Assembly: GCA_048617235.1 (NCBI GenBank)
Contig: JBMCHT010000001.1
Coordinates: 54,043 to 118,042, forward strand
Reading direction: 5' to 3'
Length of the DNA: 64,000 nt
From: Patescibacteria group bacterium
Lineage (GTDB): Bacteria > Patescibacteriota > Minisyncoccia > Phycocordibacterales > XYD1-FULL-46-19
The first letter of the stretch is position 1, and every line of letters begins with the position of its first letter. The notes under the pieces are model-generated. The model did no database searches, was not told the origin of the DNA, and saw only the letters and a program-made list of their open reading frames with translations. This document shows, piece by piece, positions 3,468 to 56,265 of the stretch. The position numbers and the translations under genes are program-made.

Positions 3468-4214
3468 ATGACAGATAATTTTAAAATTAAAGTTAAAGAT
3501 TTTGAAGGTCCTTTGGATTTATTGTTGCAATTAATTGAAAAAAGAAAAATGCACATTAGTGAAATTTCTTTAGCTGAAGTGGCTGAAGATTTTATCTCTT
3601 ATCTGGAAAGAAAAGAAGAATTACCTAAAGAAGAAGTGGTTGATTTTATCTTTATAGCCGCTTGTTTAATGTTAATAAAATCCGCTTCTTTATTACCTAA
3701 TTTAGAAACCATTCCGGCCGAAGAAGAAGATATTCGGGATTTAGAGATTAGATTAAAGTTGTATCAAATTATTAAATCTGTAGCCGGTAATTTAAGAAAA
3801 AGAATTGAAAAATATCCTATATTTTTAAATAAACCTCGAAAAAAAGAACCCGTATTTGCTCCCGGAGTTGATTTAACTATTTACAATCTACATCAAGCAG
3901 CTATCAAAACGCTGAATGATTTACCAGTAGCAGAAAAGAAAAAACCAACAATAGCTGTAGGAAAAACTATTAATCTGGAAGAAGTGGTGGATAATTTAAC
4001 TAATCGCTTACAACAATCTTTAAAATTATCTTTTAAAGAATTTGTCAATTCCGGAAAAACAGAAGACAAGAAACAATACAAGGTTATGGTAGTAGTTTCT
4101 TTTCTGAGCTTATTGGAGTTATTAAAAAGGGGAGTGGCTTCAGCTCAACAAAATGATCTTTTTAGCGATATAGAATTATCTAATCAAGCCACCAATACTC
4201 CTCGTTATATATAA
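3468..4214 (+). CDS. scpA: Segregation and condensation protein A
   Basis: N-terminus 'FEGPLDLLLQLIEKRKMHISEISLAEV' typical of ScpA. Adjacent to scpB. Confidence 0.85.
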   Translation: MTDNFKIKVKDFEGPLDLLLQLIEKRKMHISEISLAEVAEDFISYLERKEELPKEEVVDFIFIAACLMLIKSASLLPNLETIPAEEEDIRDLEIRLKLYQIIKSVAGNLRKRIEKYPIFLNKPRKKEPVFAPGVDLTIYNLHQAAIKTLNDLPVAEKKKPTIAVGKTINLEEVVDNLTNRLQQSLKLSFKEFVNSGKTEDKKQYKVMVVVSFLSLLELLKRGVASAQQNDLFSDIELSNQATNTPRYI

Positions 4215-4332
4215 AAAGAACCCCGGCAATATCTAACTACGACACTGCCGGGGAGTAGGTGGTTTCCGGAGAGCGCCGGATAAGAAAAAGGCGCTCAACC
4301 CGGAAACCGAGGGAAGGAAGGTCATTTAATCT
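4215..4332 (-). ncRNA. Candidate ~118-nt small RNA (unclassified), transcribed convergently into the scpA 3' end
   Basis: Minus-strand consensus promoter TTGACA(4362-4367)-N17-TATAAT(4339-4344). GC-rich nested hairpins (GGTTTCCGG...CCGGAAACC). Intrinsic terminator CCCCGGCA-N17-TGCCGGGG plus U-run ending ~4215. 5' region carries CCUUCCUUCCCUC. Confidence 0.45.
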
Positions 4333-4361
4333 GTCGTTATTATATATTTTATCAAATAATA

Positions 4362-4367
4362 TGTCAA
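4362..4367 (-). promoter_or_regulatory. -35 box (TTGACA) of the candidate sRNA promoter; -10 TATAAT at 4339-4344
   Basis: Exact sigma70 consensus hexamers with 17-nt spacer, read on the minus strand. Confidence 0.5.
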
Positions 4368-4410
4368 TACCCATTTGCTAAAAAGATGAAAAAAAGTTAA
4401 TCTTATAGGT

Positions 4411-4983
4411 ATGAATTTAGGTCAAAAAATAGAAGCTTTGTTATTTTATAAGGCGGAACCACTTAAAAAAAATAAAATAATTGAATGGCTTCAAACAGAT
4501 TTTCAATCTCTAACAGAGGCTGTTTCAGAGCTAAAAGTACTTTTAAACAATCGGGGGTTGATTTTAATAGAAACAGATGACAGTTTGGCTTTGGGTACCA
4601 GGCCGGAATTAGCGGAACTATTAGCTGAAATAGATAAAAAAGAATTAGAGTCCAATTTGGGGCCTGCCGGTTTAGAAGTTTTGGCTATAGTTTTATACCA
4701 AGGACCGATTACCAGAGCCGGAATAGATTATATTCGAGGAGTTAATTCTAGCTCGACCTTGCGTCAACTAACTATGAGAGGCTTATTGGAGAAAAATAAA
4801 AATATTAATGGAGATAATAAAACTTTGGTTTATAAACCAACTATTGATTTATTAACTAAACTGGGAATTAGTAATTTGAATGATTTGCCGGATTACCAAA
4901 CCATTAAAACTAAGATGAATTCTTTTAAACAAGATGAAGGTGAAGATGAAACAAAAAACCAAACTTATGAAAAAGAAAATTAA
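4411..4983 (+). CDS. scpB: Segregation and condensation protein B
   Basis: 'LEVLAIVLYQGPITRAGIDYIRGV' winged-helix ScpB signature. Follows scpA. Confidence 0.85.
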   Translation: MNLGQKIEALLFYKAEPLKKNKIIEWLQTDFQSLTEAVSELKVLLNNRGLILIETDDSLALGTRPELAELLAEIDKKELESNLGPAGLEVLAIVLYQGPITRAGIDYIRGVNSSSTLRQLTMRGLLEKNKNINGDNKTLVYKPTIDLLTKLGISNLNDLPDYQTIKTKMNSFKQDEGEDETKNQTYEKEN

Positions 4984-13216: not shown

Positions 13217-13500
13217 AAAATGGACTGTGCACCACAACTAAAAGGGAGGGAGGTGATTCTTATCGGCACCCAAACCACCACAAAGATGCCCGTTTTCAAA
13301 ATCTCGGAACACCGAGATGAAAACGGCTTCTTCAGCGTCAAACCGGTAAAGGCAACCCCGGTCGCCCCTACCAAAAACGGCAAAAAAGAGGAACCCGTCA
13401 AGCGGGATCCTCGCAACTAGCCTCACCCCCGGAGAAGCATATGATTATAGTCTCATACGGTGCACCCGAGACAAATCATGTCCTTCTCCGGGGCTTTTTT
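13217..13500 (+). other. GC-rich promoter-to-terminator unit, either a structured RNA or a small-protein mRNA (44-66 aa; ATG 13220, GTG 13253 or ATG 13286, stop 13420). Unclassified.
   Basis: ~55% GC in a ~35% GC background. 'AAAGGGAGGGAGG' purine tract. Long-range pairing GTGCACC/GGTGCAC. Terminal hairpin CCCCGGAGAAG...CTTCTCCGGGG plus T6 at 13427-13500. Confidence 0.35.
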
Positions 13501-24284: not shown

Positions 24285-24432
24285 AATATTGAATTAAAGT
24301 TTTAATAATAATTTAAATTATAACATTTTTAATTTATATTCCTATGTTTTGAATAGAAAATATAAAAATAACACCCCGAGAAAGTTTCGTCTCCCGAGGT
24401 GCTCATCCTCTCCCCCACACCCCTCATATCTC

Positions 24433-24597
24433 TTAATTTTTGTTAAGAGACATAAGGGTACACGTTAATGAAACTCCCGCCATCACCCCCGCCCGCCAGA
24501 AATTGGGCGAGTCTAGGGCAGTGGCATCGAATATGGCTAGCATCAAGCTGATGCCAGCCATAAACGCCCAGCCGGTTTTTGTGAATTTAATACCCAT
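24433..24597 (-). CDS. Small (54 aa) hydrophobic protein encoded in a GC-rich islet. Alternatively a structured RNA.
   Basis: Strong RBS 'GGAATGGAGGAAAAG' 5 nt before ATG (24597). Product MGIKFTKTGWAFMAGISLMLAIFDATALDSPNFWRAGVMAGVSLTCTLMSLNKN. Two downstream hairpins, the second (CACCTCGGGA...TCTCGGGGTG plus TTATTTTT, ~24380-24420) an intrinsic terminator. Confidence 0.4.
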   Translation of the reverse strand: MGIKFTKTGWAFMAGISLMLAIFDATALDSPNFWRAGVMAGVSLTCTLMSLNKN

Positions 24598-24711
24598 CTT
24601 TTCCTCCATTCCTCTGTCTTATAGAGGGGTTAAAGTTTCAAAATCTACCGATAACTATAGCATATATTATTAAAAAAGTAAAGGTATTTTTAAATCAATT
24701 TTATTAAAAAA

Positions 24712-26927: not shown

Positions 26928-27002
26928 TTGGTGACCCTACGGGGAATTGAACCCCGGTTTCCACCGTGAGAGGGTGGCGTCCTAGCCGCTAGACGATAGG
27001 GC
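26928..27002 (-). tRNA. tRNA-Glu (anticodon CUC), CCA encoded
   Basis: Cloverleaf: acceptor GGCCCTA/TAGGGTC, D-arm GTCT-AGCGGCTA-GGAC, anticodon stem CCACC/GGTGG with loop CTCTCAC, T-arm CGGGG-TTCAATT-CCCCG, then ACCA. Confidence 0.85.
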
Positions 27003-27051
27003 CATATATTCTGGCCAAAATAATAACACAAGAGTTTAAAAATATAAAGAT

Positions 27052-50392: not shown

Positions 50393-50473
50393 GTTATACC
50401 ATTATAAATGGAGAGAAAGTTATAGGAAGACTTTCTCAAGAAGGAAAGAAAAAGGAAGGAAGGAAGGGAAAAT

Positions 50474-50815
50474 ATGTCCGTAGTAGCCTCACACCCGCCG
50501 GCCGTTGAGCCGGCAAACGATCAAGTGGTACTGGAAGTCTCGGACTTCGCCTCGGGAAACCAGGTTGCCCGAAACCTCAAACTGGGCAACCGGTACGGGC
50601 GTCCGATGACTCAAGACGAGGTTCTGGAACAGAGCCTCGACCTCCTACAGGAGGGCGTCGCCATCCTCTGCCCGGGCCCCGGGCAGAAAAACTGCATCAT
50701 GATCTATACCGACGGTCGCGGCAACATTGTGGCCACGATCATTGAAGAGACGACCAGTTTCCCGGCCGGGGACTTCAAGGTCGCCTACATGGTGGCCGTC
50801 CCCAATAATTTCTAA
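50474..50815 (+). CDS. High-GC (~60%) small protein of unknown function. Likely foreign origin or an unusual constraint.
   Basis: 113-codon ORF after a 60-nt polypurine leader ending 'AAGGAAGGAAGGAAGGGAAAAT-ATG'. GC3-rich codon usage unlike neighbours. Followed by a terminator hairpin. Confidence 0.5.
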   Translation: MSVVASHPPAVEPANDQVVLEVSDFASGNQVARNLKLGNRYGRPMTQDEVLEQSLDLLQEGVAILCPGPGQKNCIMIYTDGRGNIVATIIEETTSFPAGDFKVAYMVAVPNNF

Positions 50816-50833
50816 CCCCCCTTCCCACAACCA

Positions 50834-50867
50834 CCCCGCGCCAAACTTGGTGCGGGGTTCTCTTATA
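50834..50867. terminator. Intrinsic terminator shared by the high-GC ORF (+) and uppP (-)
   Basis: CCCCGCGCC-aaacttg-GGTGCGGGG (9 bp with one G.U), followed by TTCTCTT. Confidence 0.5.
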
Positions 50868-53387: not shown

Positions 53388-54322
53388 AAACGACCGGCCG
53401 CACAGGCATTATAACGATTAAGAGTTTGATTATAAGAAGCTACGGTAGCAGCCGCAGCTCTAAATCTGTTTTCATATAGATCAATTAACTCCCTAGTTTG
53501 GTCAAAATCTTGTTTATTTTTAGATTCTTCTATTTGATTACTTAAATCATTCAAAATAGACTTATGATCATCTAAAATTGTCAAAATAGAATGATCCGGT
53601 GCCGGACAATCTCTTTTTTTAATACCATAGATAATTATTACTATATACTTATCACCATAAGGACTAATAGCTATCCCTGCTTCTTTATAACCTGAACCGG
53701 CTCCGGAATGAGATCGAGCCGCTTTATCCAATAATTCAGCCAAAAAAGCCGAAGATACAGGATCAGTTATGGCTATTTGTTCAGCTAAACCGGCATAATC
53801 ATAGCCGGTTAAATTTATAGCCTCTTTTATTTGATTTTCATTAAATAATAATGGTTTCCCTTCTATAATAGCTTGAACTCGCCGAGTAGCTACAAAATTT
53901 AAATTATCATTTAAACTTAAACTAAATAATCCCCTTGCTTGTCGTTTTTGATTTAAATAAGTAAAAACCAAACTTACTTCTGGTTTTACATCTTCGTTTA
54001 TTTCTTTTTCCTCATCAGTTAGCAAATCATTTTTTTCTACCTCAACCTCTGGGGCGGAATAATTCACAGAAGGAACTGAAGATATAATTTTATCTGAAGG
54101 TGATCCTAATTGCGGTAAATTAGCCGGAGACCAATTATTAATATCTGTTATTGATTGTCTATCTATAATCGGAGTGGGATTTATAATTTCTTCCTCTTCA
54201 ACTATAATTTCTTCAACATCATTACTTCTTTCCACCCCCAAAAACCAGACCGTTAACCAACCGCTAACCAAAACTATAGCCATAATCAATAAAACTTTAA
54301 TTAAAATGGAAAATTCTTTCAT
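53384..54322 (-). CDS. Secreted/membrane-anchored hypothetical protein (possible CAP/SCP-like C-domain)
   Basis: N-terminal TM, acidic linker. C-terminal region with weak CAP-like pattern. Low confidence. Confidence 0.35.
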   Translation of the reverse strand: MKEFSILIKVLLIMAIVLVSGWLTVWFLGVERSNDVEEIIVEEEEIINPTPIIDRQSITDINNWSPANLPQLGSPSDKIISSVPSVNYSAPEVEVEKNDLLTDEEKEINEDVKPEVSLVFTYLNQKRQARGLFSLSLNDNLNFVATRRVQAIIEGKPLLFNENQIKEAINLTGYDYAGLAEQIAITDPVSSAFLAELLDKAARSHSGAGSGYKEAGIAISPYGDKYIVIIIYGIKKRDCPAPDHSILTILDDHKSILNDLSNQIEESKNKQDFDQTRELIDLYENRFRAAAATVASYNQTLNRYNACAAGRL

Positions 54323-55035
54323 AAAAATTTATTAGAAATAACAGTTCCTTTAAATTCCAAATTATTTAAATAATTATCTAATCGTTCTAAATGTTGACCA
54401 TTAATAATAATCACTTCCATATTTTCAGCTTGAGCCAATCTGGAAGCTTCCGGATCAAAAGGAGTAGATAATCCCGGATTCCAATCTTTGGGTATTAATT
54501 GTAAAAAATTAACCCAAGATATTTTGTCGTAAAATTCAGCTTCAATATTTTTTTGAGGATCTTCCTCATAAACATAATCTATATTAGATAAATTGATTAT
54601 TCTATCTGACCCTAAAGTTTTAGCTAAAGACACAGCACAATAATCAGTACTACGACCCGGTCGCCAACCGGCAGCCACCAATAAAGATTCCTCAAAAACA
54701 GGAAGAGCGGTTGGATTTTTAACCATCACCGGATGAGCTTCTTGATAAAAAATAGAGCGTAAAAGATGTCCATTCAAACGAGTCCCATGAATACCCAACC
54801 AATCCAAATCCTCAACCGATAAATCGGTTACCGCTTGACCGGCTTTTTGGTAACGCCTGGCAGTTTGACCACCACCGGTTATAAGCACAAATCGTCGACC
54901 TTTACTTATTTGTTCCAATAAAATATTTTTAAAAATTTTAAGAAAAGAAATATCAATATTATCAGGTACTATCAAAGACCCTCCGACTGATATAATAATT
55001 GGTTTTTCTTTTTTCATCATTAAAGAGTTTAGCAA
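54319..55035 (-). CDS. pyrH: Archaeal-type UMP kinase (amino-acid-kinase fold)
   Basis: 'IISVGGSL', 'ITGGGQTARRY', 'LGIHGTRLNGHLL', 'AGWRPGRSTDYCAVSLA...IDYVYEEDP' collinear with archaeal PyrH. Confidence 0.7.
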   Translation of the reverse strand: MLNSLMMKKEKPIIISVGGSLIVPDNIDISFLKIFKNILLEQISKGRRFVLITGGGQTARRYQKAGQAVTDLSVEDLDWLGIHGTRLNGHLLRSIFYQEAHPVMVKNPTALPVFEESLLVAAGWRPGRSTDYCAVSLAKTLGSDRIINLSNIDYVYEEDPQKNIEAEFYDKISWVNFLQLIPKDWNPGLSTPFDPEASRLAQAENMEVIIINGQHLERLDNYLNNLEFKGTVISNKFL

Positions 55036-55069: not shown

Positions 55070-55097
55070 TTGACTTTAACAATATTATATTTATACT
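55070..55097 (+). promoter_or_regulatory. Sigma70-like promoter TTGACT-N16-TATACT
   Basis: Hexamers at 55070-55075 and 55092-55097, immediately upstream of the structured RNA. Confidence 0.4.
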
Positions 55098-55103
55098 ACA
55101 TTA

Positions 55104-55322
55104 TAGATGGGAGAAGGTGGCCGATCTAAGGCAAAAACCAACACACAATTCAGTAAAAAAACGCCTTGGTATTAACCACCTTCTCCCCTTCCTTCTGCCT
55201 TTTAAAGATAAAGCGGGGTCGAGACGACCCAAATCCCACAAACAGCTGTGAGGCCTGTTTGATGAAAGATTAGCCGTTCTCGGCTCCGCCCCCAACCCCC
55301 GAATAACTCGGGGGTTTATTTA
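55104..55322 (+). ncRNA. Candidate ~215-nt structured RNA (unclassified), promoter-to-terminator unit with no downstream same-strand gene
   Basis: 12-bp perfect closing helix GGGAGAAGGTGG(55109-55120)/CCACCTTCTCCC(55176-55187). Hairpins GGGTCG-aga-CGACCC and CAAACAG-N9-CTGTTTG. Terminator CCCCCGA-ataac-TCGGGGG plus TTTATTT. Confidence 0.45.
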
Positions 55323-55326
55323 TAAA

Positions 55327-55752
55327 TTATTCTTCAGTTAGTTGAGTTACCGTTCCCACCTGATCAGCCGGAGTTAGACCTAATTCAAATACCACCCACT
55401 GCCAGGCTGAAAGATTATTTAATAAATTTTCCCGAAAATTATTAAAATTTATATTTTGACTTTCTCCTTCCACTAAAATAGTTATTTGAGGATCTTTAAC
55501 TAAAATTAAATCTTTAATACCTGCAAGATCTTCATTATTACCAACCCCTCCTTCTAAATAATCCACCGGATCAACCACTAAATGCCATTCACTTTCAGAT
55601 TCATAAATATCTCGAATAAAAACAGTCTCGTAATCAACAATAGCTTGATTAACTTGATTACCATTCTGCCACCACAGCCAACCAGTTACAGCTAAAATTA
55701 ACAATAAACCACCAACTATATATTTTATTTTAAAATTTTCTCTTTGTCTCAT
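55327..55752 (-). CDS. Hypothetical membrane-anchored protein
   Basis: N-terminal TM 'YIVGGLLLILAVTGWLWW'. No known domain. Confidence 0.4.
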   Translation of the reverse strand: MRQRENFKIKYIVGGLLLILAVTGWLWWQNGNQVNQAIVDYETVFIRDIYESESEWHLVVDPVDYLEGGVGNNEDLAGIKDLILVKDPQITILVEGESQNINFNNFRENLLNNLSAWQWVVFELGLTPADQVGTVTQLTEE

Positions 55753-55836: not shown

Positions 55837-56265
55837 TTAGCGAGTCAAAATTTTGTCCACGCAGGGAACAAGGTGAGGCAATTGAAGACAGATTGTATTC
55901 CGCAACTCAAATACCTCACCGGGGGTAGAAGTGTGTTTAAAAGCGCCTTGCAAGCAAAGCTTAATCATCACCTCGGCCAATCCCTGTAGTGACTGACTCT
56001 CAAAAATAAGACTATCAATCAGCTTAATAATCTTTATCAAGTCAGCCGGTTCTTTGGCCTGAAGTCGAGCTTGGCACAAGGCCCTTAAAGCCAAGAGGCC
56101 GTCAATCCGACTGAAGGCCCGGCCAACCTCCAACCACTGCCAACACGCCAGATCCTCAATCAAAAGACCTTGAAAAAAGCGCTGGGCTTTCTCCCTAGTT
56201 TTCGATTGAGAATTTTGATTGACATACTGATTAAAAAGCTTCAGCATCTGATTCAAATCAGCCAT
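55837..56265 (-). CDS. Hypothetical alpha-helical protein (142 aa), second gene of a GC-richer two-gene operon. Start at ATG 56265, not the longer ORF-track call.
   Basis: Strong RBS 'AGAGGAGGA' 6 nt upstream. Start 1 nt after the zinc-ribbon gene's stop. Downstream hairpin plus T6 terminator (~55795-55830). Confidence 0.5.
   Translation of the reverse strand: MADLNQMLKLFNQYVNQNSQSKTREKAQRFFQGLLIEDLACWQWLEVGRAFSRIDGLLALRALCQARLQAKEPADLIKIIKLIDSLIFESQSLQGLAEVMIKLCLQGAFKHTSTPGEVFELRNTICLQLPHLVPCVDKILTR

Follow-up and report, generated by a model that had tools for sequence, protein, structure and literature searches.

A candidate small RNA gene between scpA and scpB in a Patescibacteria group bacterium

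A stretch of 64,000 nucleotides from a Patescibacteria group bacterium (NCBI GenBank assembly GCA_048617235.1, contig JBMCHT010000001.1, positions 54,043 to 118,042 of the forward strand; this whole stretch is called the window below, and position 1 is its first letter) contains between the genes scpA and scpB, on the minus strand (4367..4213), what may well be a free-standing gene for a lineage-specific base-pairing small RNA (sRNA) of about 118 nt. From its signals, fold and complementarity we propose that this RNA binds purine-rich leaders of mRNAs, the best candidate being the leader of the open reading frame (ORF) that starts at position 50474. We regard the element as a credible candidate for an sRNA of a trans- and/or cis-acting kind that is already known, belonging to no described family and coming from a poorly explored phylum.

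Promoter, fold and terminator of the candidate gene

The candidate gene is flanked by scpA (3468-4214, plus strand, PF02616) and scpB (4411-4983, plus strand, PF04079). The DNA is part of a metagenome-assembled genome with the locus-tag prefix ACOCU8. The NCBI accession numbers of the two products, MFW5853069.1 for ScpA and MFW5853070.1 for ScpB, are consecutive, so that no protein is annotated between them. On the minus strand of the spacer the sequence TTGACA-N17-TATAAT is the single 12/12 match to the sigma-70 consensus in the whole 64 kb, both strands included, where 0.06 such matches are expected from shuffled sequences (one perfect promoter was obtained in 6 of 100 shuffles of the window). 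The other promoter-like sites and the terminators were surveyed in three 20-kb scans, together 60 kb, in which the runner-up promoters reached 11/12 once and otherwise 10/12.

A terminator hairpin (stem-loop 2, SL2) lies about 118 nt past the promoter on this strand and is followed by a U-run that overlaps the scpA stop codon (4212-4214; Table 1). The 60 kb scanned contain only two terminator-like sites with 8 G-C pairs, the one of the sRNA gene and the one after ORF 50474. Rough arithmetic, starting from 0.06 perfect promoters per window and then requiring, within at most 150 nt on the same strand, either of the two strongest terminators that 120 kb of strand contain, gives joint odds of about 1e-4. 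The initial annotation of this DNA had described a perfect minus-strand TTGACA-N17-TATAAT and an RNA of about 118 nt that ends at the scpA stop in a GC-rich stem plus U-run, and both descriptions were borne out, the promoter as unique and the stem with 13 pairs, 8 of them G-C, the run extending 2 nt into the stop codon.

The minus-strand RNA folds with a predicted energy of -55 kcal/mol (z = -6.7), which none of 200 shuffled sequences equalled, into an unpaired 5' tail, a first stem-loop (SL1), a short linker and SL2. The plus strand folds less well (-49.6 kcal/mol, z = -4.8) because it turns three G.U pairs (one of SL1, two of SL2) into A.C mismatches, and neither of its hairpins has a U-run behind it. 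Promoter, G.U polarity and U-run thus all agree on a minus-strand transcription unit, and an independent unit on this strand accounts most simply for promoter, structure and terminator. Transcription, the 5' end and the 3' end we infer from these signals. As expected of a base-pairing sRNA, the unit has the sequence signals of a promoter and a Rho-independent terminator of its own, which bound a stretch of 50-300 nt outside coding sequence, and its predicted fold offers an accessible seed in the tail and the SL1 loop. Pyrimidines make up 75% of the unpaired nucleotides versus 50% of those in stems.

The sRNA gene is bracketed by an 11-nt perfect inverted repeat, ATCUUUUUAGC at 4156-4166 and GCUAAAAAGAU at 4377-4387, on the strand of the scpA-scpB mRNA. 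The repeat extends imperfectly to 4150-4163 and 4391-4404, one of its arms falling within the coding region of scpA. In a read-through transcript its arms might pair and loop out the spacer; alternatively, such a repeat could have arisen by chance in AT-rich sequence.

Complementarity to the leader of ORF 50474

The 5' tail has a 10-nt perfect complement, GGAAGGAAGG, in the leader of ORF 50474, where it occurs in two registers, at 50454 and 50458 of the plus strand, 7-20 nt before the ATG (tail site 50454-50467). The exact 10-mer is present in three copies in the window versus 0.21 expected, which agrees with the perfect complementarity over 10 nt to this leader already claimed in the initial annotation. 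New relative to that annotation is a second site: the SL1 loop together with its closing CC, CCUUUUUCUU, is perfectly complementary over 10 nt to AAGAAAAAGG at 50446-50455, and the match extends to 13 bp with one bulge. The loop site is upstream and the tail site downstream, the two abutting each other and being colinear for antiparallel pairing. Apart from this leader, neither strand of the window has a purine tract of at least 20 nt.

When the sRNA segments were shuffled, a 10-mer match to the leader was obtained with p = 0.004 for the tail and p = 0.008 for the loop. The predicted duplex energies are -20.0 kcal/mol for the tail (approximately -20..+5 relative to the start) and -14.4 kcal/mol for the loop (approximately -32..-18). 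With the tail alone, the leader ranked first among 238 candidate start regions (-19.4 kcal/mol), ahead of a spurious antisense match at the sRNA's own locus (-15.9) and of the next site (-15.5). In a two-site colinear model it was the best non-self site of 12,788 scan windows on both strands (-33.8 versus -30.4 for the next). When the antisense of the sRNA locus was aligned to the leader with gaps allowed, the score was 37; shuffled sequences gave 22.6 +/- 4.0, and none of 500 shuffles reached 37. This leaves room for our suggestion that the sRNA may derive from an inverted duplication of its target leader.

We therefore propose the following mechanism. The sRNA would be transcribed from its consensus sigma-70-type promoter and would end at the strong intrinsic terminator adjoining the scpA stop codon. 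Its pyrimidine-rich unpaired segments would pair with purine-rich segments of mRNAs, of which the 50474 leader is the best in the window, the SL1 loop taking the upstream site and the 5' tail the downstream site. With both sites paired, the start codon would be covered along with the region where ribosomes load, and as a result translation would be repressed and/or the stability of the mRNA altered. That the pairing takes place in vivo, and in which direction it regulates, we infer here from complementarity and rank.

The candidate target is an ORFan. Native genes of the window have a GC content at the third codon position (GC3) of 0.18-0.29, versus 0.75 in ORF 50474, and its GC pattern over the three codon positions (GC1/2/3; Table 1) indicates a real coding gene of foreign composition. 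It is located between a PGI/SIS-domain gene and uppP (BacA). Searches of 5.8 billion proteins and of 1.84 billion representatives gave no homologue, and the ORF matched no family in Pfam, PADLOC or PHROG. A single-sequence AlphaFold model had a mean confidence (pLDDT) of 41.6 and was unusable.

The initial annotation had called the CU-rich block of the tail an anti-Shine-Dalgarno (anti-SD) motif. This label is doubtful because the genome hardly uses SD sites: an SD core (GGAG, GAGG or AGGA) at -20..-4 is found in 3 of the 58 ORFs of at least 120 amino acids (aa), less often than the 8.9% seen when positions were taken at random. In 22 of the 58, versus a background of 16%, a TAnnnT box lies upstream with its end 5-10 nt from the ATG, which suggests that leaderless mRNAs are widespread. 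The scarcity of SD sites in the window fits the report that the anti-SD motif of 16S rRNA is missing in about half of the Parcubacteria (PMC9297842).

The few genes with purine-rich, SD-like leaders, namely 13253/13286-13420 (plus strand), an ORF near 24595 (minus strand), 50474-50815 (plus strand) and 55837-56265 (minus strand), are GC-rich and foreign-looking; those other than 50474 may have been acquired or may form a special regulon. The leaders at 24370-24600 (minus strand), 13253-13420 (plus strand) and 55837-56265 (minus strand) read GGAAUGGAGGAAAAG-AUG, AAAAGGGAGGGAGG and GAGGAGG. GC3 is 0.62 for 13253-13420 and 0.50 for 55837-56265, and the product of the small ORF starting near 24595 appears membrane-like when read by eye.

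A further intergenic RNA, GC-rich, highly structured (-91.7 kcal/mol, z = -5.7) and about 230 nt long, is predicted at 55085-55330 on the minus strand, upstream of an amino-acid-kinase (pyrH-like) gene (54319-55020, minus strand). In its fold a long-range helix, GGGGAGAAGGUGG...CCACCUUCUCCC, sequesters a purine-rich block. It had no meaningful match in Rfam and may be an undescribed leader or sRNA.

Table 1. Features of the candidate sRNA gene, of its candidate target and of the long scpA-scpB spacers in relatives (positions in the window)
Feature	Position	Strand	Description
scpA-scpB spacer	4215..4410	+	196 nt
-35 box TTGACA	4362..4367	-	part of the sole 12/12 sigma-70 consensus match
-10 box TATAAT	4339..4344	-	17-nt spacer to the -35 box (4345-4361)
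Predicted transcription start	4332 (plausible 4330-4334)	-	A, 7 nt past the -10 box; from the standard -10-to-start spacing
Unpaired 5' tail AGAUUAAAUGACCUUCCUUCCCUC	4309..4332	-	24 nt; unpaired probability about 0.9 or more
CU-rich block CCUUCCUUCCCUC	4309..4321	-	13 nt, contains UCCC; unpaired probability about 0.9 or more
Stem-loop 1 (SL1)	4261..4308	-	10-bp outer stem, UU bulge, 7-bp GC-rich inner stem, 12-nt apical loop
SL1 apical loop UUUUUCUUAUCC	4278..4289	-	12 nt, pyrimidine-rich; unpaired probability about 0.9 or more
Linker ACCUACU	4254..4260	-	7 nt, single-stranded in the fold
Terminator hairpin, stem-loop 2 (SL2)	4221..4253	-	13 pairs, 8 G-C, two G.U
Terminator T/U-run, DNA TTCTTTTT, RNA UUCUUUUU	4213..4220	-	last 2 nt overlap the scpA stop codon
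Leader of ORF 50474	50438..50472	+	35 nt, all purine; candidate trans target
ORF 50474	50474..50815	+	candidate target gene, 113-aa ORFan; GC1/2/3 = 0.63/0.39/0.75
Terminator of ORF 50474	50833-50858	+	its own; with SL2 the strongest found in the three 20-kb scans
Spacer in relative L059			GIY-YIG ORF flanked by ATCCCGTTAAAGAT-type inverted repeats
Spacer in relative L016			similar inverted repeats without the GIY-YIG ORF
Spacer in relative L034			IS200/RAYT-like gene with its repeats
Spacers in relatives L019, L056			common TTGACA-N18-TATAAT promoter, hairpin, small ORF
Spacer in relative L084		+	consensus TTGACA-N16-TATAAT promoter, about 55 nt, terminator

Known families, relatives and rival explanations

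A search with the Rfam covariance models (cmscan), as the initial annotation had recommended, gave no match at the sRNA locus at the gathering score; the sole match in the window was tRNA-Glu at 26929-27003. At E<=10 on 301 nt (4150-4450) only noise was obtained (fragments of snoRNA, miRNA and lncRNA), with no housekeeping RNA, RsaE or riboswitch among the matches, and ARAGORN found neither tRNA nor tmRNA in this interval. No family model for 6S RNA, 5S RNA, tmRNA, RNase P or tRNA matched in 4150-4450, and the RsaE/RoxS family (RF01820) had no match at E<=10.

The bacterial small signal recognition particle (SRP) RNA (RF00169), also called 4.5S RNA, resembles the candidate in length and in being GC-rich in an AT-rich genome, and the plus-strand GGAAGGAAG recalls the helix-8 GGAA/GGAAGCAGC region, a likeness that we judged superficial. 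The locus has no AGCA motif and not one long hairpin but two, with a free 24-nt tail and ends that are not paired, and its promoter, terminator and G.U pairs are on the opposite strand. As the SRP model matched neither strand, at the gathering score or at E<=10, a plus-strand SRP RNA had rightly been rejected in the initial annotation. A leader or riboswitch was ruled out by finding no minus-strand gene downstream. For a type I toxin-antitoxin system no small hydrophobic toxin ORF is nearby, only a basic 40-aa ORF and a 30-aa ORF with no coding signature, and the candidate target is a soluble-looking 113-aa ORFan located 46 kb away. The element does not resemble the miniature inverted-repeat transposable (MITE) or repetitive extragenic palindromic (REP) type, since it is present in a single copy in the 64 kb and has neither terminal repeats nor target-site duplications at its borders.

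The closest ScpB sequences are 51% identical (among 5.8 billion proteins) and 52% identical (in a metagenome scan), the named matches being mostly from Parcubacteria/Paceibacterota. The host genome is probably of the Parcubacteria/Paceibacteria. Synteny was compared in 5 + 80 loci of ScpB relatives, all with at most 52% ScpB identity and none from a relative at the genus level. Their scpA-scpB spacer is usually <=60 nt long, versus 196 nt here. About 17 of the approximately 80 loci have spacers longer than 100 nt, whose contents are unrelated to the sRNA and to each other (Table 1) and matched no Rfam family. This varied cargo marks the scpA-scpB junction as a place in Patescibacteria where small units have inserted repeatedly. 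One sequence was considered as a homologue and rejected: a Limnocylindrales metagenome-assembled genome (L013, 6831-6854, minus strand) contains 24 nt, TGACCTTCCTTCCCTCGGTTTCCG, identical to the tail and the start of SL1, just after an ORF stop in a GC-rich genome. Beyond these 24 nt the covariance model gave 15 bits (E = 0.16), with no promoter and no U-run, and we judged the identity to be due to chance.

Several observations weigh against a base-pairing sRNA that acts on the 50474 leader. On the side of the target, the single-site cofold energy difference (ddG) of -18.9 places the leader in the top 0.2% or so of windows, where about 9 of 4,260 non-self windows are as good; approximately 0.15 matches as good are expected among about 65 start regions, so that the 10-nt match is weakly significant. 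In the two-site model the leader is ahead of the next site by a small margin, and because both partners are of low complexity (CCUU- and GGAA-like repeats), mononucleotide shuffles overstate the significance. A helix of 10-13 bp within a 12-nt loop is sterically strained. Should the 16S rRNA be devoid of the anti-SD motif, ribosomes may not bind at the purine tract, and another route of occlusion would be needed. The scan for targets covered 64 kb of the genome.

On the side of conservation, the sRNA was not found at the same scpA-scpB position in the 5 + 80 loci, and a single-sequence covariance model (R1) run over 610 kb from ScpB relatives recovered only the sRNA gene itself. An exact 18-mer (seed plus start of the stem) had 9 matches in 185,579 species genomes, a set that does not include the source genome; the matches, L013 among them, are from unrelated phyla and about as many as expected by chance. 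A 19-mer of the hairpin had no match in viral contigs, and there is no second copy of the sRNA in the window. Since no homologue was found, there is no support from covariation. With the nearest ScpB relatives only 51-52% identical, however, the failure to find homologues neither supports nor refutes the sRNA, which is lineage-specific as far as the data go. Of the trans-acting sRNA proposed in the initial annotation, the signals of a transcription unit and the best-ranked start region stand, and a second colinear site has been added; the single 10-nt match on its own is of weak significance. The 50474 leader as target is suggestive, not established.

The same signals have to be weighed for other explanations. 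The RNA could act mainly as a cis-antisense RNA, which we consider unlikely as its principal mode: transcripts reading through from scpA would pair with the abundant antisense RNA in a perfect duplex of about 118 bp and the polymerases would collide, and cleavage of the double-stranded RNA or transcriptional interference would uncouple scpB from scpA or tune its expression relative to that of scpA. If both strands are transcribed this is physically almost unavoidable, the sRNA gene lying inside the scpA-scpB junction and convergent with scpA. The gap of <=60 nt between the two genes in most relatives is that of an operon. Because neither plus-strand hairpin is followed by a U-run, scpA appears to have no intrinsic terminator, and its read-through transcripts would be fully complementary to the sRNA; this perfect complementarity tops the energies in every scan, and GadY in the gadX-gadW spacer offers an analogue. 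A possible promoter of scpB's own with leaderless spacing (TTGCTA-N17-TAATCT-7 nt-ATG) would, however, free scpB from read-through, and an action in cis leaves the pyrimidine-rich unpaired segments and the two matches to one distant leader unexplained. Pairing in cis and in trans are compatible and do not exclude each other.

Somewhat less probable again is that there is no functional RNA, that the GC-rich hairpins stabilise 3' ends or form a polarity barrier remaining from an old insertion in the scpA-scpB junction, and that the promoter is a chance or decaying sequence. This would agree with the spacer being a hot spot of insertion, with the failure to find the element conserved by 18-mer scan or covariance model, and with the 6 in 100 shuffles that yield a perfect promoter. 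It does not agree well with promoter, G.U polarity and U-run pointing to one strand at a spacing typical of sRNAs (the joint chance given above), with the non-random complementarity of two sites to one start region, or with the lack of a second copy, a terminal inverted repeat and a target-site duplication as are typical of mobile elements. An RNA of an undescribed protein-binding or housekeeping type, for example a pyrimidine-rich decoy for ribosomal protein S1, with the 50474 match incidental, we consider quite improbable. The three pyrimidine-rich unpaired segments and the reduced genome would suit it, and a consensus promoter with a T-rich region upstream is, by our reasoning, typical of abundant stable RNAs. 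Yet housekeeping RNAs are conserved, and nothing similar was found in the 610 kb of ScpB relatives or, by the 18-mer, in the GTDB species representatives; no Rfam family matched either.

Finally, a coding role of the transcript, either as a small mRNA or as a dual-function RNA, is very improbable. The product would be the 30-aa peptide MTFLPSVSGLSAFFLSGALRKPPTPRQCRS (4325..4233, minus strand). In favour of it, its AUG is 7 nt from the predicted start, its ORF reaches into the terminator loop, a moderately hydrophobic stretch of 19 N-terminal residues precedes a basic tail, and genes in this genome need no SD site. Against it, GC1/2/3 of 0.48/0.61/0.58 is a non-coding pattern, the native GC3 being that given above, a random open frame of 30 codons has by our arithmetic a likelihood of about 24%, and nearly the whole ORF is locked in the -55 kcal/mol structure. 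The distance from the -10 box to the ATG is 13 nt, versus the 5-10 nt of leaderless spacing seen in 22 of the 58 genes. The overlapping ORFs of 45 and 40 aa are absent from the protein collection (the look-up did not include the 30-aa peptide), and none is annotated between ScpA and ScpB.

Known systems and significance

The base-pairing sRNA that we favour has its nearest parallels in the C-rich/UCCC sRNAs of Firmicutes (RsaE/RoxS, other Rsa RNAs and the hairpins of RNAIII), which are likewise stand-alone genes of about 100 nt with a promoter and an intrinsic terminator of their own. Unpaired UCCC or C-rich motifs of Staphylococcus aureus sRNAs block ribosome loading (PMC2790875). Their C/U-rich unpaired motifs pair with purine-rich ribosome-binding regions, and here a UCCC within the accessible CU block is predicted to pair in the same manner. 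There is, however, no homology in sequence or structure; the seed is at the 5' end here and in loops only there, the host barely uses SD sites, and the RNA was not found in the relatives examined.

For the pairing at two sites the parallel is OxyS-fhlA, in which two unpaired regions of an sRNA of about 110 nt pair with two nearby sites at one start region. Here, too, two separate unpaired regions face two sites around one start region, as predicted from sequence; they are a free 5' tail and a loop, and the sites abut, with 10-13 bp each. For the location of the gene the parallel is GadY, a cis-encoded antisense sRNA in the gadX-gadW spacer. The present gene is also on the opposite strand in the junction of a co-oriented pair and fully complementary to any read-through transcript. 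It differs from GadY in that read-through, duplex formation and processing are here predictions from the sequence.

Put together, the observations would allow a more specific and rather speculative picture, which as a whole we hold to be improbable: a strongly expressed, lineage-specific sRNA, which may stem from an inverted copy of the leader, would silence a recently acquired GC-rich gene by clamping its polypurine leader at two adjacent sites with tail and loop, and this in a lineage of the Parcubacteria type that has largely abandoned SD initiation and has many leaderless mRNAs. If true, it would mean control of foreign genes at the RNA level in a bacterium of the candidate phyla radiation (CPR), and the first sRNA-target pair described for this group. 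In the literature we found no described regulatory RNAs for Patescibacteria/CPR.

As a single-genome in-silico candidate the sRNA gene is useful as a concrete target for mapping in metatranscriptomes and is not yet a discovery. The genomes of Patescibacteria are tiny, and many appear to do without classical SD initiation, as judged from published work (PMC9297842) and from the genes of this window. Verification of the sRNA together with a defined target would demonstrate that control by base-pairing RNA exists even in such reduced epibionts, and the pair would offer a way to study the reading of purine-rich leaders where translation makes little use of SD sites.

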